IMG/VR virus record: IMGVR_UViG_3300033480_000002
Coordinates: 1 to 51,768 of that record
Origin: a virus
Length of the DNA: 51,768 nt
Reading direction: 5' to 3' (one strand)
Part shown: positions 14,650-42,625 of the stretch, in pieces
Layout of the letters: every line of letters begins with the position of its first letter
Position numbering within the stretch: the stretch's first letter is position 1
Program-made: the position numbers and the translations under genes
The notes under the pieces: generated by a model
Seen by the model: only the letters and a program-made list of their open reading frames with translations
The model's database searches: none
Told to the model about the DNA's origin: nothing

Positions 14650-14943
14650 ATGGCCATGCCAATGACTGAGGCGACGCTTAGTAACGTCGCCAGCAGCATT
14701 GTTTCCCAAGAGATTTCGGGAGGTTCATCCTCCCGCAAGCTCCTTTCCGTATATAATGACTCTGGTCAGGTGCTGTATCTGAAATTTGGAACGGAAGCAT
14801 CTCCGACGTCATACACGGTACAGGTTGCAGCCGCTGCTTACTACGAATTGCCTAACCATCCAACGCATGGGACCTACCTCGGTGTCATTACCGGAGTGTG
14901 GGCTGCGGCGAATGGTTACGCCAGGGTGACAGAGGTATCATAA
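14650..14943 (+). CDS. Hypothetical small tail-module protein (97 aa)
   Basis: Starts 3 nt after the upstream stop and ends in a TAATG overlap with the next gene. Confidence 0.7.
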   Translation: MAMPMTEATLSNVASSIVSQEISGGSSSRKLLSVYNDSGQVLYLKFGTEASPTSYTVQVAAAAYYELPNHPTHGTYLGVITGVWAAANGYARVTEVS

Positions 14944-16358
14944 TGCCGCTGTATGGACCTGCTACGCAGATCCCCCATACTGTTTCAGACATGTTGCGCG
15001 GGGCTAGTACGTCTAGCCCCGCAATCATGTCCCACCGAGCCCATCGTCATGCATTTCCTGAAAACAGCATGGCGGGTTATGAAAGTTCTTTCGCCGTCGC
15101 GGACGCGGCGGAGATCTCGTTTTATCGCACAGCGGATTATGTTCCCATCTGCATGCATGACTCGACGCTTACGCGCACCACGGACGGCACTGGCAATATC
15201 TCCGATATCACATACGCAACTCTGAAAAAGAACGTGAAGATTGACATCGGGGCATCAACCCTAGGGGCCGGGTGGGCGAGCCAAGACATTCCGCTTCTAA
15301 TGGATGTCATTGATCTCGGCGTTGGTAAGATTCCACTTCTGGTCGAACCAAAAACTGGATCTACGAGTGATTTCGGTGTTCTTTATGACATCATAAATAG
15401 ATTCACCTCACCAACAAGCAATTTCATCATCAAGGGTTACAGGGATACAGACGGCACATCCACAAGCGGAGTAGCCGCTGCCGCCGGACTGGGATATACC
15501 ACGTGGGTGTATTACAGTGAGGCTGATACCGCTGATATGATTACGGCGGGAGCTAATGATCCATACATTTCCATCCTCTCCATTCCGGCATCCCTTGCAT
15601 CCGAGGCGAATATCGCTCTTGCTTCCGCCACGGGAAAACCCGTAACTGTGCATGATGTAAATAGGCGCAGCGAAATGGCGACCTTCACGGGTCGTGGGGC
15701 GACGATGATTATGAGTCCCCAGGTTGGCTATCTCCAGCGTTCAACGGCCGCCCTGACTTCGACACACTTTGCGGATCAGCTCAGAGACCCCGGAATGATC
15801 CGGTACAATCTTGCTTTTGAAACATTCCCAAGTATGGACGCTGTCGATGGATCCATTGCTATGACAAGTGGCACTACTAATACCCTCATGCTTGGATCGC
15901 TTTGTGGGACAACCGCACCGGCAAGTTATGTAATTAATTTCTCGATCAAGTGGCCTACTCTTCCAGCAGTGAACGAGCAATCAGGTATTGCATTCGGCAA
16001 ACCAGATGACTCATCGTTTGGCACGCAGGATGCTACCAATGCTTCGGGTGGATATCATTTGGTTATCCGCCCCAGAGGGGCGACAGATACAGACTGCGCT
16101 TTCCAGCTTTATACCCACGCGCCATTGACGGCTGTTGGTACAAAAATCGGGGAATTGGCATCAAGTGCCAAGGTGGTTGCAGACACTTGGCTTACTGGCA
16201 CCGTTACGGTCACCGCCGCTAACATCACTATCGAGCGAACTGACGTTGCGACAGATCCAGTCACGGTTGCGAATACGACTTACCGTGGCCCGTACGTCCA
16301 TCTTGTTCCCGGGTCATCCACGCAGACGGTAGAATTCGGGAATGTCTCGATCACCTGA
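14943..16358 (+). CDS. Tail-associated glycerophosphodiester phosphodiesterase (GDPD) domain protein
   Basis: N-terminal HRAHRHAFPENSMAGYESS...CMHDSTLTRTTDGTG matches the GDPD active-site pattern (H-R...E-N...H-D). Start moved to the ATG at 14943 (MPLYGPAT) because it overlaps the upstream TAA. Confidence 0.8.
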   Translation: MPLYGPATQIPHTVSDMLRGASTSSPAIMSHRAHRHAFPENSMAGYESSFAVADAAEISFYRTADYVPICMHDSTLTRTTDGTGNISDITYATLKKNVKIDIGASTLGAGWASQDIPLLMDVIDLGVGKIPLLVEPKTGSTSDFGVLYDIINRFTSPTSNFIIKGYRDTDGTSTSGVAAAAGLGYTTWVYYSEADTADMITAGANDPYISILSIPASLASEANIALASATGKPVTVHDVNRRSEMATFTGRGATMIMSPQVGYLQRSTAALTSTHFADQLRDPGMIRYNLAFETFPSMDAVDGSIAMTSGTTNTLMLGSLCGTTAPASYVINFSIKWPTLPAVNEQSGIAFGKPDDSSFGTQDATNASGGYHLVIRPRGATDTDCAFQLYTHAPLTAVGTKIGELASSAKVVADTWLTGTVTVTAANITIERTDVATDPVTVANTTYRGPYVHLVPGSSTQTVEFGNVSIT

Positions 16359-18022: not shown

Positions 18023-18095
18023 AGCGGGGTAGAGGAGTTCGGTGCCTTGGCGGCCCCATAAGCCGCAGACGCGGGTTCAAATCCCGCCCCCGCCA
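18023..18095 (+). tRNA. tRNA-Met(CAT)-like: tRNA-like gene, anticodon CAT (Met/Ile2-type), non-canonical
   Basis: Hand-folded cloverleaf. Acceptor AGCGGGG/CCCCGCC with an A1xC72 mismatch, D stem GAGG/CCTT, anticodon stem GCGGC/GCCGC, loop CCCATAA (C at position 33 instead of U), T arm GCGGG-TTCAAAT-CCCGC. 73 nt. Confidence 0.55.
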
Positions 18096-18131
18096 CGGCG
18101 GGGAGTCACTCCAAGTGACTCCCCGACCCAA

Positions 18132-18204
18132 TGGTCAGTAGCTCAATTGGTAGAGCGTCGGTCTCCAAAACCGAAGGTTTCAGGTTCAACTCCTGACTGA
18201 TCAG
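18132..18204 (+). tRNA. tRNA-Trp(CCA): tRNA-Trp (anticodon CCA)
   Basis: Hand-folded. Acceptor TGGTCAG/CTGATCA (one G-U), D arm GCTC-AATTGGTA-GAGC, anticodon arm TCGGT-CTCCAAA-ACCGA, variable AGGTT, T arm TCAGG-TTCAACT-CCTGA, discriminator G. 73 nt. Confidence 0.85.
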
Positions 18205-18324
18205 CCCTCCCTCCGATCGACCGGCCCGGAGGAGCGTAAAAGACCGGTAGCTAGAGCCGCTTTAGATTCCCCTGTCTACATAGCGAGGCTAGCGAATTCA
18301 CTTGAATTAGGGAGAGACGCCAGT

Positions 18325-26458: not shown

Positions 26459-26640
26459 TCGTCATCTCCTAGCTCTCGTGGCCGATAGGAACTGACCGGA
26501 CGTCGCTCCTCGGCAACAACCAGGAGTGACTCGATCCACCGAGCACAAGTGTGGCACAGGTGTACCGTCCTGGACTGCCCGGGAGCTTCTATGCGGAATT
26601 TGCAGATTGCCTTCCTTCGGGCGCATTTGTCACAGTTCAT
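26455..26640 (-). CDS. Small zinc-ribbon protein (61 aa)
   Basis: Trimmed to MNCDKCARRKAICKF...HLCHTCARW (CxxC...CxxC). Its ATG overlaps the integrase TGA (ATGA). Confidence 0.6.
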   Translation of the reverse strand: MNCDKCARRKAICKFRIEAPGQSRTVHLCHTCARWIESLLVVAEERRPVSSYRPRELGDDE

Positions 26641-27638
26641 CTCACTGCCGCCAATCTGACGACCGTGGGCTGCTCGGTCGTCCACATCTCCTGGCCGATG
26701 ACGCTCTCGCGGTCAGCCTCTTCACGATCGAATCCGAGGTAGTGCCAGGTCTCTTCAATATTCTTGTGGTGAAGCCACTTCATTATCACCTTATCGGCGA
26801 TATATGGGTCAAGGTCGTTCTTGATCAGGGTGTTCCTATATGCTAGCGCGCCGGATCGGCGCAGCAAGTGTTCACCAAGACCCTTGAGATCGGTTGTGAT
26901 GGTGGTATTGGAAAGCGCACGTTGGATGATCTCATGCACTTTCTGTACTGGTCTTGATGGATTCAATCGGTCCCGCCCGTGTTGACGAGCGGGAACGAGA
27001 TGCCATTCCGGATGCTCGATCATCATCTGACGGACCGAGTTGTATCCCATCTCTGACGCATACCAATCGAGATAGGAGACAAGCCCACGCTCCAATGTGG
27101 CGCTGACCGGCATCCAGTCCAGCAAGTTGGATTTCCACACGTGGACACGGATATGCGGACCCGGCCGGTCGGGATCTGAGCCCTCCCAACTGATGTCCCC
27201 CAAGGTAATGGTGGCCATTTCGGATGCCCTGAGGAATAGGGTCAGGCCGAGCAGGACAATCATCCGGTCCCGCTCGCCCGTTGCTCCGTCGAGTAGATGG
27301 CCGAACTGATCGGGGGCGAGGCGGAATAGGTCGACTGGATCGACCTTGTACATGGCCAGGTCACTAGTGGGGTTCTTGCGGGTGTACCCACGGGCATGCG
27401 TCCACCTGAAGAACATCCGGAGACCGGACACGTACGCATTGAGCGTGTTCGCCCCGTGAGTTTCACTGCGGTCTTCAAAGAACCGATCCATGTGCTCATG
27501 GGTAACCCGAGAAATCTCAATATCTCCCGTGACGGTCATGAGTTGACTAATCGTGCTGGCGTATCGCCGCAGCGTACTGGCGCTCTTGCGCCGGTTCAAG
27601 CTGGCGATGTACTTGTCCCTGGCTTCGGAGATCTTCAT
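26637..27638 (-). CDS. int: Tyrosine recombinase/integrase (XerC/D-like, SAM-like N-domain)
   Basis: Catalytic pattern: R in LFLRASEM, H-x-x-R in GEHLLRRSGA, H/Y in HHKNIEETWHYLG. N-terminal TLRRYASTISQL...LNAYVSGLRMFFRW core-binding domain. Start trimmed to MKISEARD (ATGA overlap with the upstream gene). Confidence 0.85.
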   Translation of the reverse strand: MKISEARDKYIASLNRRKSASTLRRYASTISQLMTVTGDIEISRVTHEHMDRFFEDRSETHGANTLNAYVSGLRMFFRWTHARGYTRKNPTSDLAMYKVDPVDLFRLAPDQFGHLLDGATGERDRMIVLLGLTLFLRASEMATITLGDISWEGSDPDRPGPHIRVHVWKSNLLDWMPVSATLERGLVSYLDWYASEMGYNSVRQMMIEHPEWHLVPARQHGRDRLNPSRPVQKVHEIIQRALSNTTITTDLKGLGEHLLRRSGALAYRNTLIKNDLDPYIADKVIMKWLHHKNIEETWHYLGFDREEADRESVIGQEMWTTEQPTVVRLAAVR

Positions 27639-28285
27639 GCGATCATCCCCGCGAGGGCGCGAGAGACGGTTTTCTGGGAGCATCCAACCTCAAGGGCTAG
27701 GCGTCCATGTGTCCACGAGGGATTGCGCGATTTCAGTGTCCGTATCACTGTGGACGTGTCCACCCCATTCCCTGTCCTACTTGACTGGACAGGGGTGGCA
27801 TTCTCGGTGTCTACCTGAGCGGCTTTCCGTGTCCGCCTCGGAGTGGACACCTTTTCTTTTGTCATGTCCACCTGGAATGTCTTCTCTGTCCGGTCCAATT
27901 CGGACAGGGAAATGCTGGCGATGACCACTAGGCCATCGACACACAATGGCATGATGTGACTAGAGGACGTCGATTCTCCGAAATGCAAGCAGACCGCCAG
28001 CATATGCTGGTAGCTGACCACTGCTGCAACTCCAGCGACGACGGCTGCGGCGACCAGCCGGACACCGGAGCGCCATGAGCGCTCCGAGGGGATGCGCTCG
28101 ATCACGAGAGAGCCGAGGGCCAGCGCTGCCGCTGGCCATGCCGCGATGCCCTGAGAGATCAACCGATTGGGCGACTCGATCAAGGAAGCGTGCAGCACGT
28201 TGGCTGCTAGGGAGGCAGCGAGGCCGAGCCCGAGCGCGCAGCGCGCGACCAGTCGACCCGCCGTGCAGGTATTGGGAGCTGTCAT
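27635..28285 (-). CDS. Multi-pass membrane protein (DUF2637-like) with C-terminal HTH
   Basis: Four hydrophobic segments plus SYQHMLAV...PLCVDGLVVIAS, which I recall as the DUF2637 signature. C-terminus WTHGRLALEVGCSQKTVSRAL is HTH-like. First gene of the leftward operon. Confidence 0.65.
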   Translation of the reverse strand: MTAPNTCTAGRLVARCALGLGLAASLAANVLHASLIESPNRLISQGIAAWPAAALALGSLVIERIPSERSWRSGVRLVAAAVVAGVAAVVSYQHMLAVCLHFGESTSSSHIMPLCVDGLVVIASISLSELDRTEKTFQVDMTKEKVSTPRRTRKAAQVDTENATPVQSSRTGNGVDTSTVIRTLKSRNPSWTHGRLALEVGCSQKTVSRALAGMIA

Positions 28286-33513: not shown

Positions 33514-34063
33514 TGCCACTCGCCGTCGGAGGGGTCCGGAGACCGAACGTTGGGTTTGCGCTTACCTCAAGAAGATATTCCCTTTTGCGTCAACAAAGGG
33601 TGGCTCAAGCCCTGGAAGGGATATCCTAAATACGACGGGTTTTTCGATCGAGGTAAAGGCAAGGGCTGGTTTCAACCCCCTCGCCTGGCTTAAACAGGCA
33701 AAAAAGAATAGCTGTGAACATGAATTCTCGGTTGTTATTTTCCGCCCTAACGGGATGGGCGAAGCCCAGGTGGGATCATTTGGGGTAATCATGACCCTAT
33801 CTGATTTCCGGGATCTTGTTGAAGCAATCATTGAAGCACAAAAAGGATCGGAATTTAGTGGGGAATGCATAGCGGATACACAGATAGCAGACCTGACATC
33901 GGATCCGTCCTGGACTACTACGGCGTCACGTACAGCCTTGGGTGTAGTTCAGACCAGTCGATCAAATGTCCAGTGCATGACGACTCTCGCCCGTCGGCCA
34001 GTCTCAACCTCGATAAGCAGCTCTTCTGCTGCCACGCCTGCGGAGCAAATGGTTCTGTTTTAG
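33497..34063 (+). CDS. PD-(D/E)XK Holliday-junction-resolvase-like nuclease; C-terminal ~65 aa overlap the primase ORF
   Basis: GPETERWVCAYL (E), GRDIL (D) and FSIEVKAR (E-x-K) give the resolvase-type motif order. The domain appears complete by about 33830, but the frame stays open to 34063. Confidence 0.6.
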   Translation: MTSGSSATRRRRGPETERWVCAYLKKIFPFASTKGGSSPGRDILNTTGFSIEVKARAGFNPLAWLKQAKKNSCEHEFSVVIFRPNGMGEAQVGSFGVIMTLSDFRDLVEAIIEAQKGSEFSGECIADTQIADLTSDPSWTTTASRTALGVVQTSRSNVQCMTTLARRPVSTSISSSSAATPAEQMVLF

Positions 34064-34260
34064 ATCTTGTCATGCTGAAGGAGGGGGTTGATTTTGCGAC
34101 CGCTCTCCAGCTCGCAAAGGAAATCGCTGGAACGGGCGACGGCGAGATACGAGATAAGTCGAGAGTTAGCGCTCCTGTACCTGAGAGCGAGGGGTATCAA
34201 CCCCGATACCGCCGAACGATTCCGGCTAGGCGTCGTGTCCGACCCGCTTATGGGACATGA
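33865..34260 (+). CDS. DNA primase, CHC2 zinc-finger part
   Basis: DIGSVLDYYGV...CPVHDDSRPSASLNLDKQLFCCHACGANGSVLDLV is the DnaG-type CHC2 finger. Frame 1; its tail after about 34130 looks non-coding-like (RYRRTIPARRRVRPAYGT). Confidence 0.7.
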   Translation: MHSGYTDSRPDIGSVLDYYGVTYSLGCSSDQSIKCPVHDDSRPSASLNLDKQLFCCHACGANGSVLDLVMLKEGVDFATALQLAKEIAGTGDGEIRDKSRVSAPVPESEGYQPRYRRTIPARRRVRPAYGT

Positions 34261-34729
34261 GCAGTTCGCTGGGAGGTTGAGCATTCCCTCTATAGGTCCC
34301 CGGGGTGTGTACAGCCTTCGCTTCCGCTGTATCGAGGAGCACGACTGCAAAGAGAGAAATTGCCCCAAGTATCTCGGATTCGGAGATGCCCAGACTCGCC
34401 TGTTCAATATCCAGGATATCCACGATGCCGTGGATGAGATCTGCGTAACCGAGGGAGAATTGGATTGTGTTGTTCTCAGCCAATGTGGGTTCTACGCAGT
34501 TGGAGTTCCTGGCTCAGACAACTGGAAGAAGCACCACCCTCGAATGCTCACTGGGTTCGAGAGAGTCTTTGTCTTGGGGGATGGTGACAAGGCTGGAGCT
34601 GGTTTTGCCAAAAGGGTTGTCGCTTCCCTCTCTAACGCAGTCAATGTCCAGTTACCTCAAGGAATGGATGTCAACGATTACTATCTCGCCAAAGGCGAGG
34701 ACGGAATAAGGGAGTTAATCCATGCGTGA
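34088..34729 (+). CDS. DNA primase, linker plus TOPRIM part
   Basis: LALLYLRARGINPDTAERFRLGVV (primase linker), then EGELDCVVL and VLGDGDKAG (TOPRIM E and DxD). Frame 2, overlapping the Zn-finger ORF by 173 nt. Confidence 0.7.
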   Translation: MILRPLSSSQRKSLERATARYEISRELALLYLRARGINPDTAERFRLGVVSDPLMGHEQFAGRLSIPSIGPRGVYSLRFRCIEEHDCKERNCPKYLGFGDAQTRLFNIQDIHDAVDEICVTEGELDCVVLSQCGFYAVGVPGSDNWKKHHPRMLTGFERVFVLGDGDKAGAGFAKRVVASLSNAVNVQLPQGMDVNDYYLAKGEDGIRELIHA

Positions 34730-34955
34730 TCCAATAATCGAGCGGAACTTTACTTACCATAAGCCCAATGATGACCAGGTTGCCCGGATGGAAACCTTCC
34801 GGAATGCGGCTAAAGATCTTGCCTACGAGATCAAGAATGAAGCTCCATTGTGTTATGAGACATCTGTCGCAATGGAAAAGCTGTCTGAGGTTGTCATGTG
34901 GGTTAACGCAGCTATCGCCAGGGAGGTTGAGAATGTCTCCGCACTGCGAGGGTAA
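34722..34955 (+). CDS. Small helical-hairpin protein (77 aa); possible Acb2/Tad1-hairpin-like family (recollection only)
   Basis: Signature FTYHKP...Q..R....R.AAKDLA..I....P...E.S.A..KL.E..MWVNAAIARE. I associate this YHxP...NAAIAR pattern with a widespread phage two-helix family linked to nucleotide-signal sponges. Not verified. Confidence 0.35.
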   Translation: MRDPIIERNFTYHKPNDDQVARMETFRNAAKDLAYEIKNEAPLCYETSVAMEKLSEVVMWVNAAIAREVENVSALRG

Positions 34956-35214
34956 CACCTGCCCCGATGAGAGGAAGCTGGACGAAGTATTCAGCCGGGA
35001 ATTCAGCGACTGGGACGAGACCACCAATCCCTCTCCGGGAAATATCGTAACTAAGTGGATTGCCATTGTCGAGGTCTGTGACGTCGATGGCAGGCGGCGA
35101 CTTCAATGGTGCACCTCGGAGAGCATGGCCCCTTGGGATGCGAGGGGAGTCCTCCTGTCTGTCGTTGACGAGCTGGACCCACCGTCTGTGGTGATGGCTG
35201 GCGGGTGTAGCTAA
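34933..35214 (+). CDS. Hypothetical protein (93 aa)
   Basis: Trimmed to the ATG after GGGAGGTTGAGA (MSPHCEGNTCPDERKLDE...). 23-nt overlap with the upstream gene. Confidence 0.6.
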   Translation: MSPHCEGNTCPDERKLDEVFSREFSDWDETTNPSPGNIVTKWIAIVEVCDVDGRRRLQWCTSESMAPWDARGVLLSVVDELDPPSVVMAGGCS

Positions 35215-35297
35215 TGCCCTGTATTCAGATCATGCCCGGAGTAATTGTCTGCCTCCGGGATCCAGATGAGGACGACGAGGATTGGGGTGACGAGTGA
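35214..35297 (+). CDS. Micro-ORF (27 aa, acidic), uncertain
   Basis: MPCIQIMPGVIVCLRDPDEDDEDWGDE. Start overlaps the upstream TAA (TAATG) and its stop overlaps the next GTG (GTGA), exactly bridging two genes. Confidence 0.3.
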   Translation: MPCIQIMPGVIVCLRDPDEDDEDWGDE

Positions 35298-35830
35298 AGG
35301 TTATCTTTTGGGATTTGGAGACCACAGATCTCAAAGCTCTTATGGGGCGCATCATTTGTTGCTCATTTGTTACGCTTGAAGGTGACATCTGGACATACAG
35401 GGGTGATGATGACCCCTACCGCAGAGCCGACCTGATTGATGATGGCGCACTTTGTGTCACCATCCGGGACACCCTAGAAGACTTCGACCTGATTGTTGCC
35501 CACAATGGACGGCTGTTCGATATTCCCATGTTGAATGCCAGATTGGCGAAGGTGGGGGAGCGTCCGCTCAACCCTCACTTTGTGATGGATCCTCGCTGGT
35601 ACCTCAATTCCTCATCGATGAGGATCGGATCAGCGAAGCTGGAGAATGCCCAAAAGTTTTTCGGTCTCACGGAGTCGAAGACTCCGATCTCATGGGAGAC
35701 CTGGCAGAGGGCCGGTATGGGAGACCGGGCTGCCATGGATGAGGTGGTACGGCACTGCGAACAGGATGTGCTGGTGCTGCGGGAGTTGTACCCGCATGTA
35801 TTGCCTTACGTAAAGACGTTGCACCGGTAA
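35294..35830 (+). CDS. DEDD-type 3'-5' exonuclease (RNase H-like fold)
   Basis: ExoI FWDLETTD, ExoII VAHNGRLFDIPML, ExoIII VVRHCEQDV. Confidence 0.75.
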   Translation: MKVIFWDLETTDLKALMGRIICCSFVTLEGDIWTYRGDDDPYRRADLIDDGALCVTIRDTLEDFDLIVAHNGRLFDIPMLNARLAKVGERPLNPHFVMDPRWYLNSSSMRIGSAKLENAQKFFGLTESKTPISWETWQRAGMGDRAAMDEVVRHCEQDVLVLRELYPHVLPYVKTLHR

Positions 35831-36234
35831 TGGGTGGGTATGGCTTCAAGCCAGGAGACCGAGTACGGGTCATCGGGGGAAATCCCCCAAGGGGCCTCAC
35901 TGGAGAGATTATCCGTGATGCCAGCTACCTGGGTTGGGTGATTAAGGCGGATCCCCCTTTCAATGCTATCGAGAGTTTCATATACGGCTGGGAATTGGAG
36001 ATGGAAGTGCATCCTACTCACTTTGGCTGGGCGCTGGAGCAGCTTAAGCTTGGGCGACTTCTCGCCCGTAGGGGCTGGAATGGCAAGGGAATGTATGTGG
36101 CCCTCCAGGAGCCGGACGAGGGATCCGCGAATACCCTGCCCTACCTCTACGTGATCACCGTGACCGGCGATCGAGTCCCCTGGGTGGCAAGCCAGTCGGA
36201 CCTCCTGGCCATTGACTGGGAGCTTGTTGGGTGA
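35830..36234 (+). CDS. DUF2829-like (Tad2-type fold) domain protein with N-terminal extension
   Basis: C-terminal half FGWALEQLKLGRLLARRGWNGKGMYVALQEP...LPYLYVITVTGDRVPWVASQSDLLAIDWELV matches my memory of the DUF2829 consensus (F..A...lk.G..v.R.gW.....i......W..s..DlLa.DW). The N-terminal ~55 aa are SH3-like and unassigned. Confidence 0.6.
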   Translation: MGGYGFKPGDRVRVIGGNPPRGLTGEIIRDASYLGWVIKADPPFNAIESFIYGWELEMEVHPTHFGWALEQLKLGRLLARRGWNGKGMYVALQEPDEGSANTLPYLYVITVTGDRVPWVASQSDLLAIDWELVG

Positions 36235-36422
36235 ACTTCTACCGCAAGTCTGAAACCATTCACAATTGTCCACTTCCGCCGCTCCCGTTTGAGTGGGGAG
36301 AGGACTGGATCTGTGAGGACTGTGGGGCCAAGTGGCTAGCCACCGAGGCGTGGAAGCCGAAGAGTGGCCAGCGGTTTCAGTGGAGCCTATTGGAGTTAGG
36401 AAGAGGGGTTGGCAATGGGTAG
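36231..36422 (+). CDS. Hypothetical small protein (63 aa)
   Basis: GTGA overlap with the upstream gene. Contains CEDCG. Confidence 0.5.
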   Translation: MNFYRKSETIHNCPLPPLPFEWGEDWICEDCGAKWLATEAWKPKSGQRFQWSLLELGRGVGNG

Positions 36423-36642
36423 TAAGAAGATCACATTTGAGCAGGCAGTAAAGTCACTCTGGGAAGAGTGCGAGGAGTGGGGTAGCGAGGTTCATCCGTT
36501 CGTCCTCCTCATGTCCTTCGCTTACCGTTCTCCCGAATCTGTCAAGTCCTGGGAGGACGCTGACCACGAGGCAAAGAAGAGAGAGAAGCTCGGCCTGGCC
36601 CTGAGCCACCTTGGGGAGAGGTTGCTGGGGGAGAATGTTTGA
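36415..36642 (+). CDS. Hypothetical small acidic protein (75 aa)
   Basis: ATG follows GAGGGG (MGSKKITFEQAVKSLWEECEEWG...). Confidence 0.55.
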   Translation: MGSKKITFEQAVKSLWEECEEWGSEVHPFVLLMSFAYRSPESVKSWEDADHEAKKREKLGLALSHLGERLLGENV

Positions 36643-37336
36643 TGTCGATGCGGAAATCTATGGTGTCGCCCGCCAGGTCCACCGGGGTTACCGCTCATAC
36701 ATCACGTTGGCTGATTTGGCTCAGATTGGCCAGGTCTGGCGTTATGAGCATAAGAAACGGATGGAAGACCTAGAGGCGGCCCTGGCCGAAGAGATCATCA
36801 CTCCTCAAGCTGCTAGGTGGTCTCTTCGTCGAGACCTCCGCAGGGCCATGGAGCTGGAGGCCAGGAAGGCGAAGGCTCATTGGATTGGCTATGACCCGTC
36901 AGATGAGCAGTTCTATGGGCATGCTTCCATCGAGCTGATTCTGCCAGCGGTCTGGTTCGGGGAGATCTCCCCCCCCACGGCCTTCACTGGCCCCGTGGCG
37001 GGTAAGAGCGACCCCGCCGAGGGGAACACCTGGGCAGCCCGAGTCCAGGACGTCAAAGGGGCATGGGAGGGCTCTCACCTGACGGGCAGGGAGCAGGCGG
37101 TGCTGATCTATAACGTCTGCTATGAGCTGCCGATGACACATGTTGCAGAACTGTTCAATGTGGACGAATCCACCATTAGGCGCTGGAAAGCCGCAGCCCT
37201 GGATAAGATGGTCGATTTCCTGGGGGGCCCCCGTCCGCGGGGGTGTCCTTACGACTGCGAGTGCCACGAGGGAAGGCTCAGGCGCAGACCGAAGCTCCAC
37301 ACGAATGACAGCGGAGCCAATCAGATGCTAGGGTGA
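36635..37336 (+). CDS. Sigma-70 region-4-like HTH regulator (ECF-sigma-like candidate)
   Basis: REQAVLIYNVCYELPMTHVAELFNVDESTIRRWKAAALDKMVDFL is a region-4-type HTH. An upstream DLAQIGQVW resembles region 2. Start trimmed to the ATG at 36635 (overlaps the upstream stop). Confidence 0.55.
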   Translation: MFDVDAEIYGVARQVHRGYRSYITLADLAQIGQVWRYEHKKRMEDLEAALAEEIITPQAARWSLRRDLRRAMELEARKAKAHWIGYDPSDEQFYGHASIELILPAVWFGEISPPTAFTGPVAGKSDPAEGNTWAARVQDVKGAWEGSHLTGREQAVLIYNVCYELPMTHVAELFNVDESTIRRWKAAALDKMVDFLGGPRPRGCPYDCECHEGRLRRRPKLHTNDSGANQMLG

Positions 37337-37375
37337 ACCTGTCGTCATCGACCCCCAAGCGAGAGGCGACACTGA

Positions 37376-37549
37376 GAGGCCCCCAGGTTGCGCCGAAGCT
37401 GGGGGCCTCTTGCTGTACACTGGGGTTGCCCCTTCCTAGGGGGCGGCTCTACCACCGCACGCCATCCCGCCCCCCTCCTCTGCTCGGGGCGGGATGGCGA
37501 CAGGCGCCCCTCCGGACCCTCATCCGGAGGGGCGCTCTGCTGTATCTTT
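37376..37549 (+). other. Three consecutive GC-rich hairpins (terminator/structured RNA candidate)
   Basis: GAGGCCCCCAG/CTGGGGGCCTC plus TTGCTGT (37376-37416). GCCATCCCGCCCC/GGGGCGGGATGGC (37461-98). GCGCCCCTCCGGA/TCCGGAGGGGCGC plus TCTGCTGTATCTTT (37504-49). Confidence 0.6.
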
Positions 37550-38244: not shown

Positions 38245-38286
38245 GAGAGGGTCACCGTTGCGAGCGGTGGCCCTCTCGTTTATTTG
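38245..38286 (+). terminator. Intrinsic terminator at the convergence point
   Basis: 13-bp stem GAGAGGGTCACCG-ttgcgag-CGGTGGCCCTCTC followed by GTTTATTTG. Overlaps the stop of the minus-strand gene at 38280. A further hairpin lies at 38169-38203. Confidence 0.7.
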
Positions 38287-39017
38287 CGCCGGTATACGCT
38301 GAGTTCGTCGTGGATGTGAGACCAACTGACGTGGTGCTCACAGTCGGCAACCAACTCCCAGTCGCTCTCCAACCCCGCAAAGAACGGGTCATTGGCGTTG
38401 CACCCGCCCAGCCCTTCGCCGCAGTAGAACAGGGTGTCTCCGTTGTAGGCAGCCAGTGCGACCATTGCCATGTCACGACTGTGGGGGGGCCAACATAGAA
38501 ACAACGCCCGGTCGGGATGCAACGCAGATACCATCGCATCCCCCTGGTGGATTGGGTGATATTCGCAATGTCCAGTCCATCCCGTATCCGCTGGCGGGCA
38601 GTGGTATTTATTTCCCCCCTTGCTGGGTGGATTCAGATCATAAGCAACGACATCAACCCCGCACTGGCTCAGTAGCCATGCCCAGTAGCCGGTCCCCGCA
38701 CCGATTTCAACCACGCATCGGTCTGCTATTTGCTTCACCATCCATTGAATGGCCTTGGGGTGCGGGATAGCCCAGGAATACTGAACAGCTAGCCTATCCC
38801 TAGAGGGCATTTCGTCAAGATGGTCTTTCTTAGCCTTGACCTCCTCCGGAGGAAAGTCCATCAAGGCTAGAATCGGATGGCCTATGGGTTCCCATCTCCC
38901 GTAAAACTGCTGCGTGATCTTGTCACCAGGAATGTCCTTAACTATATCCCAGTAGGGATTCTGTATCTTCATCTGCTTCCGACTTAACCCCGTCGTATTG
39001 GCTACTTGCGACGCCAC
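38280..39017 (-). CDS. Class I SAM-dependent methyltransferase-fold protein
   Basis: Motif I VVEIGAGTGYWAWLL followed by VVAYDLNP (acidic motif II). Start uncertain: GTG at 39017, or the ATG giving MKIQNPYW. Confidence 0.65.
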   Translation of the reverse strand: MASQVANTTGLSRKQMKIQNPYWDIVKDIPGDKITQQFYGRWEPIGHPILALMDFPPEEVKAKKDHLDEMPSRDRLAVQYSWAIPHPKAIQWMVKQIADRCVVEIGAGTGYWAWLLSQCGVDVVAYDLNPPSKGGNKYHCPPADTGWTGHCEYHPIHQGDAMVSALHPDRALFLCWPPHSRDMAMVALAAYNGDTLFYCGEGLGGCNANDPFFAGLESDWELVADCEHHVSWSHIHDELSVYRRK

Positions 39018-39494: not shown

Positions 39495-40244
39495 CTATTG
39501 GGAGGAGAGAGACGGCAGGAGGTAGGAGAACAGAGCACCGGCTCGCAGCGAGGGAGCTGGGGTCGTGTTGGCTCGCTCTCGGGCTTCTCGGATTGCGATG
39601 AGCAGGATATGACCGCGGAGGAGAAGGTCATCCTTGACGCCCTGGGGGAGGGCGCCAGAGAACTGGATGGACGTCCAGTACCCCTCCAGTTGCCGATCTT
39701 CCATCATGGCGGTCTGGGCGGGGTGTTTGTCCGTGGGGGGGACGACCACGACTGGCCTCTTGAAGTCCACCACCCGGGCCGTCTTGACCGAAGCAGCCTG
39801 ATAGAGAGCTGCACTGTCGGTGTCTGCCCATTCGAGCGCTGGGTCAAGCACAGGGGCCTGCTCGACGACCGTGAGCCAGTTCTGCACCAGGCGCTCGAAT
39901 GCTAGGAGTGCCCCGACAGGGACGCCGCTCATGAGTGCCTGGCCATGGATGAGGATATCCGCCTTGGCGATCTGATTGGCAGCCTCGCGGGTGAGCGCGA
40001 TACCTGCCCGCTCGGTCATCTCGACGGCTACGGTATTGAGCACCTGTGGCGCCCGCTCCTGGACTCGCTTGCTCTCTCGCGGGAGAGCGGCTCCGCCCTC
40101 GCGGGCAACCTCGTAGGTGCGCTCCAAGCCCCCAAAGAGGGATGTCTTGGAGAGGGTAGAAATAGCCGCCTGCCGGGCCTCCTCAGCCCGCCTGGCAACG
40201 GCGGGCTCGGCCGCCAGCACTTGGCACAGGAGTGATTGGCTCAT
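39495..40244 (-). CDS. Hypothetical protein (249 aa)
   Basis: Good coding-like composition. Conserved-looking blocks LFGGLERTY, LDPALEW, KHPAQT, FSGALP. I cannot name the family. Confidence 0.7.
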   Translation of the reverse strand: MSQSLLCQVLAAEPAVARRAEEARQAAISTLSKTSLFGGLERTYEVAREGGAALPRESKRVQERAPQVLNTVAVEMTERAGIALTREAANQIAKADILIHGQALMSGVPVGALLAFERLVQNWLTVVEQAPVLDPALEWADTDSAALYQAASVKTARVVDFKRPVVVVPPTDKHPAQTAMMEDRQLEGYWTSIQFSGALPQGVKDDLLLRGHILLIAIREARERANTTPAPSLRAGALFSYLLPSLSSQ

Positions 40245-42089: not shown

Positions 42090-42476
42090 TCAAGCTCGCC
42101 ATATCCATATTGGGATCGACGCCTGCCCGGCTAACCGGATGGTGATCCTAGTCCCGACAGATCTCCTGCGCCAAAACGCTAGACATAAATCGGCCCCAGC
42201 ACTAACCATCTCCTGATTGCGGATCGGCCCGGCGCTAGGGCCGAGACGATCCCAGTCGGCCGGATGAGGCTCGATGGGCCAATGCCAGAACTCAGTTACG
42301 AGTCTGGCAGCCATTTCGTCAGCCCCGGTGGGGCAAGCACCGTGGACGAGAATCCGACCGAGGCCAAGCAGGTAATGATTCGCCGCACCGAGCGCCCGGG
42401 AGATAACCAATTCGTTCTCCCAATCTCTACTCCCGGTCACTAGGATTCGGCGGGGGCGGTCCGCTAGGGCCGTCAT
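42090..42476 (-). CDS. SLOG/DUF2493-like Rossmann protein
   Basis: RILVTGSRDW...ILVHGACPTGADEMAA...GPIRNQEMV...ADLCLAFW fits my memory of the DUF2493 (YpsA-related SLOG) pattern. The ATG at 42476 overlaps the upstream TGA (ATGA). Confidence 0.6.
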   Translation of the reverse strand: MTALADRPRRILVTGSRDWENELVISRALGAANHYLLGLGRILVHGACPTGADEMAARLVTEFWHWPIEPHPADWDRLGPSAGPIRNQEMVSAGADLCLAFWRRRSVGTRITIRLAGQASIPIWIWRA

Positions 42477-42625
42477 CGATAGCTCAGTAGACGATGACAG
42501 GATGGACACCAGATTGTACTCATTCCCCACATTCCCGGAGTGTGGATCTCACACGATGGACAGAAGTACAGCTCTCCCTCAGGGTCGGCCGCGTGCCGTT
42601 GCGATGGCACGAGCGACAGCAGCAT
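42473..42625 (-). CDS. Small zinc-ribbon protein (50 aa)
   Basis: FCPSCEIHTPGMWGMSTIWCPSCHRL (CxxC...CxxC). Its stop is fused to the next start (ATGA at 42473-76). The N-terminal start (42625) is uncertain and overlaps gene 42579..42875. Confidence 0.45.
   Translation of the reverse strand: MLLSLVPSQRHAADPEGELYFCPSCEIHTPGMWGMSTIWCPSCHRLLSYR

Follow-up and report, generated by a model that had tools for sequence, protein, structure and literature searches.

The stretch of DNA considered here (hereafter the window) covers positions 1 to 51,768 of the IMG/VR virus record IMGVR_UViG_3300033480_000002 and represents nearly all of a 51,782-bp metagenome contig (ENA ERZ27266267, k141_8148355); the gene calls of the source assembly were used as a check on the open reading frames (ORFs) in the window. 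At approximately 32.3-37.3 kb it harbours a plus-strand replication operon of overlapping and translationally coupled genes which encode, in this order, an RNA ligase, a nuclease, a primase split over two ORFs, a 77-amino acid (aa) protein, a 93-aa protein, a doubtful 27-aa ORF, an exonuclease, a 134-aa protein, two small orphan ORFs and a sigma-like helix-turn-helix protein. The 77-aa protein (34722..34955, plus strand) is an Acb2-like helical-hairpin protein and a candidate sponge of nucleotide signals. The 134-aa protein (35830..36234, plus strand) is composed of an orphan N-terminal module (residues 1-63, 35830..36018) and a Tad2-like (DUF2829) domain (residues 64-133 and the stop codon, 36019..36234), which is a candidate sponge of signals of the glycocyclic ADP-ribose (gcADPR) type. 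Both ORFs are also called in the source assembly. An earlier note, made from the sequence alone, had proposed them as two putative sponges that form a compact counter-defence locus in a temperate actinophage; its family assignments and the temperate lifestyle hold up, whereas the compact locus, the new fusion and the host stand only in part.

The C-terminal half of the 134-aa protein contains the motifs FGWALEQLKLGRLLARRGWNGKG...PWVASQSDLLAIDWELV, from which the fold of DUF2829 and Tad2 had been predicted, and it does belong to this family. The protein scores 82.6 bits against the Pfam hidden Markov model PF11195 (Tad2-like, DUF2829; curated cutoff 25, E 3e-23), a match which spans residues 64-133 and profile positions 2-73 of 73. 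The significant phmmer matches among PDB sequences are all Tad2 proteins, namely SptTad2, HgmTad2/AcrIIA7, ModTad2 and SPO1 gp34.65 (E 1e-11 to 5e-8). In an AlphaFold 2 (AF2) model based on 82 homologs, residues 61-134 reach very high confidence, with a predicted local distance difference test (pLDDT) score of 89-97, and a Foldseek search with this model against the PDB returns 24 matches with E values of 4e-7 to 1e-5, every one of which is a Tad2, while the next match has an E value of 0.2. The Tad2 matches reach a target-normalised template modelling (TM) score of up to 0.86 at a root-mean-square deviation of 1.7-2.6 Å. Like SPO1 gp34.65, ModTad2, HgmTad2/AcrIIA7 and Tad2_71, the domain consists of helix alpha1 and an antiparallel sheet and retains the two elements that hold gcADPR, namely the GWNG loop and a PW[VL]ASQ[ST]D segment, but its core of about 70 aa is smaller than that of SPO1 Tad2 (89 aa) and HgmTad2 (104 aa).

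In HgmTad2, gcADPR is contacted by W21, N22, G23, W87, L88, S90, T92 and D93, and mutation of these residues abolishes binding (Li et al., 10.1101/2023.11.15.567273). Their equivalents in the 134-aa protein, as aligned by phmmer, are W83, N84, G85, W118, V119, S121, S123 and D124, so that six of the eight contacts are identical and two are conservative replacements (L to V and T to S). HgmTad2 has in addition a pocket for cyclic di-GMP (cGG) and cyclic GMP-AMP (cGAMP) which is formed by a long insertion between beta2 and beta5 (R31, S47, F70, N85) (10.1101/2023.11.15.567273). In the 134-aa protein this insertion is cut down to a beta2-beta3 loop of about 11 residues (QEPDEGSANTL) between strands 89-93 and 105-109, and a dinucleotide pocket of the HgmTad2 type is therefore not expected. 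The closest tested relative, Tad2_71 (48% identity), has 3' cyclic ADP-ribose (3'cADPR) and N7-cADPR as ligands and is active against Thoeris of types I, II and IV (10.1101/2025.08.24.671296). All four tested homologs that combine GWNG with WLASQ[TA]D (Tad2_70, 71, 82 and 83) inhibit type I Thoeris (10.1101/2025.08.24.671296). Given the activity of these relatives, sequestration of a cADPR-type Thoeris signal is the best-supported mechanism for this domain. Two other Tad2-like homologs of about 153 aa (P0039 and P0050) carry a second, degenerate RGWNGKG-like segment near their C-terminus, which points to a Tad2 domain duplicated within the protein.

The 77-aa protein contains the FTYHKP...EVVMWVNAAIAR motif that had been associated with the Acb2/Tad1 hairpin family of cyclic-nucleotide sponges. 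The ATG of its gene has a GGGAG 7 nucleotides (nt) ahead of it, and the last 8 nt of the primase gene lie within the gene. Membership of the family is confirmed by Pfam, where the protein scores 54.1 bits against PF24729 (Acb2_Tad1_hairpin; cutoff 27, E 1.7e-14, profile positions 1-58 of 58) and thus, like the Tad2-like protein, lies above the curated cutoff, and by a match to phrog_1454 (E 2e-17); no NCBIfam model matches either of the two proteins. The Acb2-like family is large, with 2,343 proteins at E <= 0.01, and the FTYHxP...TKLEE.VMWANAxIAR subfamily, to which the 77-aa protein belongs, is found among the Acb2 homologs listed by Hadary et al. 2025 (10.1101/2025.08.24.671296). Since a phmmer search with the lone 77-aa sequence against PDB sequences gave chance matches only (E > 0.4), a family profile was needed for detection; built from 73 family members, it finds Acb2_43 (PDB 9ptq, E 2.5e-5), several Tad1 proteins (2e-3) and, weakly, T4 Vs.4 (E 0.1-0.3).

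The AF2 model of the 77-aa protein (pLDDT 89) consists of a short helix (residues 4-9) and two long antiparallel helices (20-40 and 45-75), which is the build described for the Acb2 protomer. In a Foldseek search against BFVD, Acb2/Tad1 hairpin proteins make up 18 of the first 24 matches, several of them from actinophages. The protein shares both the hairpin build and a Tyr/basic residue pair with PaMx33 Acb2, T4 Vs.4, Acb2_4, Acb2_27 and Acb2_43. Its similarity to the PaMx33 and T4 proteins is nevertheless remote, PaMx33 Acb2 not being found by sequence at all, and the beta-strands and T4/K55 contacts seen in the 3'cADPR-specific Acb2_43 are missing from it. With Tad1 it has a C-terminal helix motif in common (sRE..lAlt.lEE..mW.N), but in Tad1, a protein of 120-140 aa to which the profile aligns at about residues 87-126, the hairpin is C-terminal and follows a larger N-terminal part. 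A Tad1-like identity was considered for the 77-aa protein and rejected, as it is too short and consists of the hairpin only, which makes it Acb2-like.

The residues that form the cyclic-dinucleotide pocket of PaMx33 Acb2 are Y11, which stacks on the ligand, and K26, which forms a salt bridge. Y12 and R27 of the 77-aa protein align with these two residues and with Y8 and K23 of the T4 protein at an equal spacing of 15 residues, and neither Y12 nor R27 varies across the 73 aligned family sequences. The replacement of K26 by Arg is shared with Acb2_4, which is active against the cGAMP-using cyclic oligonucleotide-based antiphage signalling system (CBASS), and judging by the alignment the 77-aa protein keeps the dinucleotide-pocket pair. 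The situation is different at the cyclic tri-AMP (cA3) site, where the 77-aa protein has Y45 and E52 in place of the family consensus R45 and T52, seven residues apart, which can be mapped to R67 and T74 of the PaMx33 cA3 site only indirectly, via D61 and T68 of the T4 protein. Binding of cyclic trinucleotides has therefore probably been lost; this site is an optional feature within the Acb2 family.

Comparison with the closest relative found, IMGVR_UViG_3300021440_000036 (L002), which has the same gene order, reveals that both sponge genes are accessory. The exonuclease is 76% identical between the two phages, the Toprim primase 64%, the RNA ligase 48% and the sigma-like protein 41%, and the succession of RNA ligase, nuclease, split primase, 91-aa ORF, exonuclease and sigma-like gene is kept in L002. 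However, the replication module of L002 contains neither the Acb2-like nor the Tad2-like gene, nor the two orphan ORFs; its Toprim primase gene is directly followed by the 91-aa ORF and its exonuclease gene directly by the sigma-like gene. As L002 is syntenic without the sponges, two insertions have to be assumed, one of the Acb2-like gene alone and one of the Tad2-like gene together with the two orphan ORFs, and it also follows that neither sponge gene is needed for replication. On this comparison of sequences the two genes are separate accessory insertions rather than one island, and the compact locus that had been proposed is only loosely true: both sponge families are indeed present, but they appear to have arrived independently.

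Elsewhere, a Tad2-like gene is located within 10 kb in 3 of 80 IMG/VR loci that contain this Acb2 subfamily. In two IMG/VR phages of low guanine-cytosine content (L017, 9732-10198, and L042, 9711-10198) tad2 adjoins acb2, with the start codon shared or abutted, and the tandem cassette sits between a late sigma/ArpU-like regulator and the terminase genes, far from replication genes. The Tad2-like protein of L042 lacks the GWNG motif and has TGFKNPN instead. The presence of several anti-signalling proteins in one phage has already been documented for T4, which encodes Acb1, Acb2 and Sequestin. The window thus resembles T4 and the two cassette-bearing phages in combining two unrelated sponge families in one phage, and differs from the latter in that its sponge genes are split by two to three backbone genes (the 93-aa gene, the doubtful 27-aa ORF and the exonuclease gene).

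The most probable explanation, to which a probability of about 0.68 may be assigned, is that two accessory sponge genes were inserted separately into an early replication operon, the Tad2-like protein being directed against a signal derived from Toll/interleukin-1 receptor (TIR) domains and the Acb2-like protein against a cyclic dinucleotide or 3'cADPR. By analogy with the characterised members of both families, a sponge function is strongly suggested for either protein. For their assembly, ligands and anti-defence phenotype we infer the following. Tad2 is a homotetramer whose two ligand pockets lie where protomers meet; the Tad2-like protein would most likely form a tetramer too and bind a TIR-derived ADP-ribose signal of the 3'cADPR or 1''-3' gcADPR type in the pocket formed by GWNG and PW(V)ASQ(S)D, and capture of this signal would blunt a Thoeris-type defence. 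The Acb2-like protein would most likely be a hexamer of helical hairpins and bind a cGAMP-like cyclic dinucleotide, or possibly 3'cADPR, in the Y12/R27 pocket. Since translation of either gene is coupled to that of replication genes, early production is expected for both proteins, at the time the signals arise.

Several observations weigh against this interpretation. In a survey of sponge families, 19 of the 84 tested homologs inhibited none of seven systems, and Tad2_78 was inactive even though it contains GWNG and PWVPSQQD (10.1101/2025.08.24.671296). The minimal 70-aa Tad2-like domain lacks helix alpha2, which packs the dimer in SPO1 Tad2, and the N-terminal module joins just before helix alpha1, which forms the tetramer interface, and could interfere with Tad2 assembly. 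The structural comparison, which for the Tad2-like domain leads to solved Tad2 proteins as had been anticipated, gives no significant match for the hairpin in the PDB; the top match of the monomer is T4 Vs.4 (7uq2) with an E value of 2.1 and a TM score of 0.55, and PaMx33 Acb2 (8h2j) ranks 24th, a helical-hairpin monomer being too generic to score significantly. Four near-invariant family residues are changed in the 77-aa protein (R45Y, T52E, E55S and A61V). At positions 45, 52, 55 and 61 the closest homolog, P0098 (61% identity), reads H, E, N and A; together these departures mark the two proteins out as a diverged sub-branch, and the ligand of this sub-branch may not be the one bound by most of the family. 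Finally, the ligand of the Acb2-like protein cannot be read from its sequence, because the two nearest tested homologs act on different targets: type I Thoeris and cyclic UMP-AMP (cUA) CBASS are inhibited by Acb2_27 (49% identity), and cGAMP CBASS alone by Acb2_4 (47% identity, also with the Y/R pair) (10.1101/2025.08.24.671296).

The alternatives to the insertion of two sponge genes concern either the role of the proteins or the extent of the Tad2-like gene. It is rather improbable that one or both proteins are family members by descent and serve another role, be it as a replication accessory factor, in the case of the hairpin protein encoded after the primase, or as an anti-CRISPR of the AcrIIA7 type. 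Such a role would agree with the position of both genes inside the replication operon, where they are coupled to the primase and exonuclease genes, and with the failure of about a quarter of the tested family members to inhibit any of the seven systems, but L002 keeps its replication module without either gene, and elsewhere the two families adjoin each other at a distance from replication genes. AcrIIA7, a DUF2829 protein, was first described as an inhibitor of Cas9, yet the anti-Cas9 activity of HgmTad2/AcrIIA7 was not reproduced by Li et al. (10.1101/2023.11.15.567273), and the conservation of the ligand-contact residues likewise argues against a function outside signal capture. A different alternative is that the Tad2-like gene is an ordinary standalone tad2 of 75-77 aa which begins at Met58 (36001) or at Val60 (GTG, 36007), while the 57 codons upstream are untranslated or a functionless, recent read-through extension. 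This is somewhat unlikely and at the same time the alternative with the most to be said for it. Both codons coincide with the position at which standalone homologs of 73-77 aa begin, since they lie 7 and 5 residues ahead of F65 and most standalone homologs start 2-8 residues before the equivalent position; GGAG is located 6 nt upstream of the GTG; and the N-terminal module, which is without homologs, is modelled by AF2 only poorly (pLDDT 49-58). Against it stands the codon usage of the N-terminal segment, whose in-frame score of 0.208 per codon is what coding sequence typically gives (genuine coding windows 0.246 +/- 0.10, off-frame 95th percentile -0.078). In addition, the ATG at 35830 overlaps the stop codon of the exonuclease gene in the manner of the other coupled junctions of the operon, an internal start would leave a non-coding gap of 171 nt in a module that otherwise has none, and the source gene caller predicts the 134-aa product. 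An additional internal start within the 134-aa ORF is, from the sequence, possible, and a short standalone isoform might be made in place of the fusion or next to it. A spurious extension of the ORF with a non-coding 5' part was also considered and was rejected on codon usage.

The opposite view of the N-terminal module is that it represents a new functional and translated domain, a small beta-barrel of the KOW/SH3 kind which gives the sponge a second activity, and this too is quite unlikely. The coding-like codon usage and the coupled start codon count in its favour, as do the AF2 strands predicted at residues 11-15, 36-39 and 55-58 and a weak KOW/SH3-like motif in the module of about 60 aa (FKPGDRVRVIGG...G..GEI), which is also present, as PG.RVRI..G..G.I, in a repeat protein (P0218). 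In Pfam, searched at E <= 10, this motif amounts to a sub-threshold KOW match with an E value of about 0.1, and there is no match in NCBIfam. A word-index search of 5.8 billion proteins returned 95 homologs which all align to the C-terminal half only, an exhaustive phmmer search with the module against 1.84 billion representatives yielded two repeat proteins and no homolog, and a phmmer comparison with the extensions that 11 other Tad2-like proteins carry at their N-terminus found nothing. Without a homolog the module gives no sign of purifying selection. As it is not folded confidently by AF2, a structural search of the module itself is not meaningful, and Foldseek returned no significant match beyond Tad2 structures. 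The module had been described as an unassigned N-terminal part of about 55 aa and possibly a new fusion. It is indeed unassigned and homolog-free, but a translated fusion is only putative and extensions are common, with 11 of 95 other Tad2-like homologs carrying one of at least 40 aa, four of which share a recurrent module. One N-terminally extended homolog of 158 aa has been crystallised with four chains (PDB 9kzr), and the extended Tad2_73 is active and inhibits CBASS (10.1101/2025.08.24.671296), both of which lend some support to a functional domain. Judged from these sequences, an N-terminal extension as such is not unusual, and newness is limited to the orphan module.

If the two genes are indeed separately acquired sponges, as is favoured here, what the locus provides is not a novel type of system but two new members of known anti-defence families, accompanied by an orphan N-terminal extension that may or may not be real and whose function is uncertain. 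Two sponge families defined by experiment thereby gain members in a lineage of temperate phages that is uncultured and probably actinobacterial. The predictions are that the Tad2-like protein binds a cADPR-type Thoeris signal and not cyclic dinucleotides, and that the Acb2-like protein keeps the dinucleotide pocket and has lost the cA3 site. Should the N-terminal module prove to be a new domain, it might offer a second ligand site, alter the oligomer or tether the sponge to a host TIR, effector or defence protein, and its position on a minimal Tad2 core would constitute a new architectural variant of signal sponges. Mobile accessory cargo in a conserved replication operon may also serve as a guide to further anti-defence genes, the two orphan ORFs among them, and sponges of this kind are practical reagents for the capture of unknown immune signals.

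The genes between and around the two sponge genes belong for the most part to the replication backbone. The 93-aa gene (34933..35214, plus strand) has a GGGAGG ribosome-binding site 6 nt upstream and is found in the source gene calls; it has no match in Pfam, PHROG or NCBIfam, but shares 29% identity (E 8e-10) with the 91-aa ORF in the equivalent position of L002, and is thus a conserved backbone gene and not part of the sponge pair. It is followed by the doubtful 27-aa ORF (35214..35297, plus strand), a gap filler ahead of the exonuclease gene which overlaps its neighbours on both sides, its start with the upstream stop codon (TAATG) and its end with the GTG of the exonuclease gene; this ORF is not in the source gene calls and its codon-usage score is weak (0.055 per codon). 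The exonuclease (35294..35830, plus strand) is a DEDDh-type 3'-5' exonuclease of the RNase H-like superfamily, as it matches PF13482 (RNase_H_2, E 7.8e-14) and phrog_403 ('DNA polymerase exonuclease subunit', E 5e-21) and carries the DEDDh-type motifs DLE, FD and H-x4-D. Of the intervening genes listed in the earlier note, which were a DEDD exonuclease and two tiny coupled ORFs, the exonuclease has therefore been verified, while the two tiny ORFs are in fact the 93-aa gene and the doubtful 27-aa ORF.

The two small orphan ORFs that were inserted along with the Tad2-like gene (36231..36642, plus strand) encode proteins of 63 aa with a CxxC pair (36231-36422) and of 77 aa (36409-36642). Both are called in the source assembly and have no match in Pfam, PHROG or NCBIfam; they are candidates for more accessory or anti-defence cargo. 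Upstream of the Acb2-like gene, the DNA primase is encoded by two ORFs in different frames of the plus strand, one for the CHC2 zinc ribbon (33865-34260) and one for the Toprim part (34088-34729). Their overlap of 173 nt is identical in length in L002 (1624-2028 and 1856-2497), which suggests a programmed frameshift or coupled re-initiation, and in Streptomyces phages two 'DNA primase' genes are annotated at the equivalent position.

The gene content of the window, with terminase, structural genes, two tRNAs and an integrase, gives it the look of a temperate phage of the siphovirus type, and the temperate lifestyle that had been assumed is borne out by a minus-strand gene for a tyrosine integrase (26637-27683). 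The terminase shares 44% identity with that of Streptomyces phages and 53% with one on a contig of a Dermatophilaceae metagenome-assembled genome (MAG), and the primase is 49% identical to that of Streptomyces phages. A megablast search with positions 33800-37400 against 50,697 phage records gave zero matches, and by sequence this would be a phage lineage without a close sequenced relative. In a scan of genomes for prophage relatives the lone match was the terminase of the Dermatophilaceae MAG (53%), which is a weak pointer to the host. The host is probably actinobacterial, going by these relatives; the designation as an actinophage is reasonable but indirect, because the relatives are all distant (44-53%).

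Several further genes of the window may be mentioned. In the right arm, a SLOG-family protein (42090-42530, minus strand) matches PF10686 (YAcAr, E 4e-10) and phrog_289. SLOG domains have ligands derived from nucleotides, and ThsA uses its SLOG domain to sense gcADPR; by analogy, this protein could be a further interactor with nucleotide signals. At the start of the minus-strand right arm, a DUF7873 gene (39495-40244, minus strand), whose match is strong and full-length (E 3e-59), adjoins a gene for a methyltransferase-like protein (38280-39017, minus strand) which matches PF13489 weakly and phrog_19090 with an E value of 8e-40. The tail-gene region encodes a 486-aa protein (14898-16358, plus strand) with a glycerophosphodiester phosphodiesterase domain (PF03009, E 7e-14), and genes for tRNA-Met(CAT) and tRNA-Trp(CCA) are located amid the structural genes at 18023-18206 on the plus strand.

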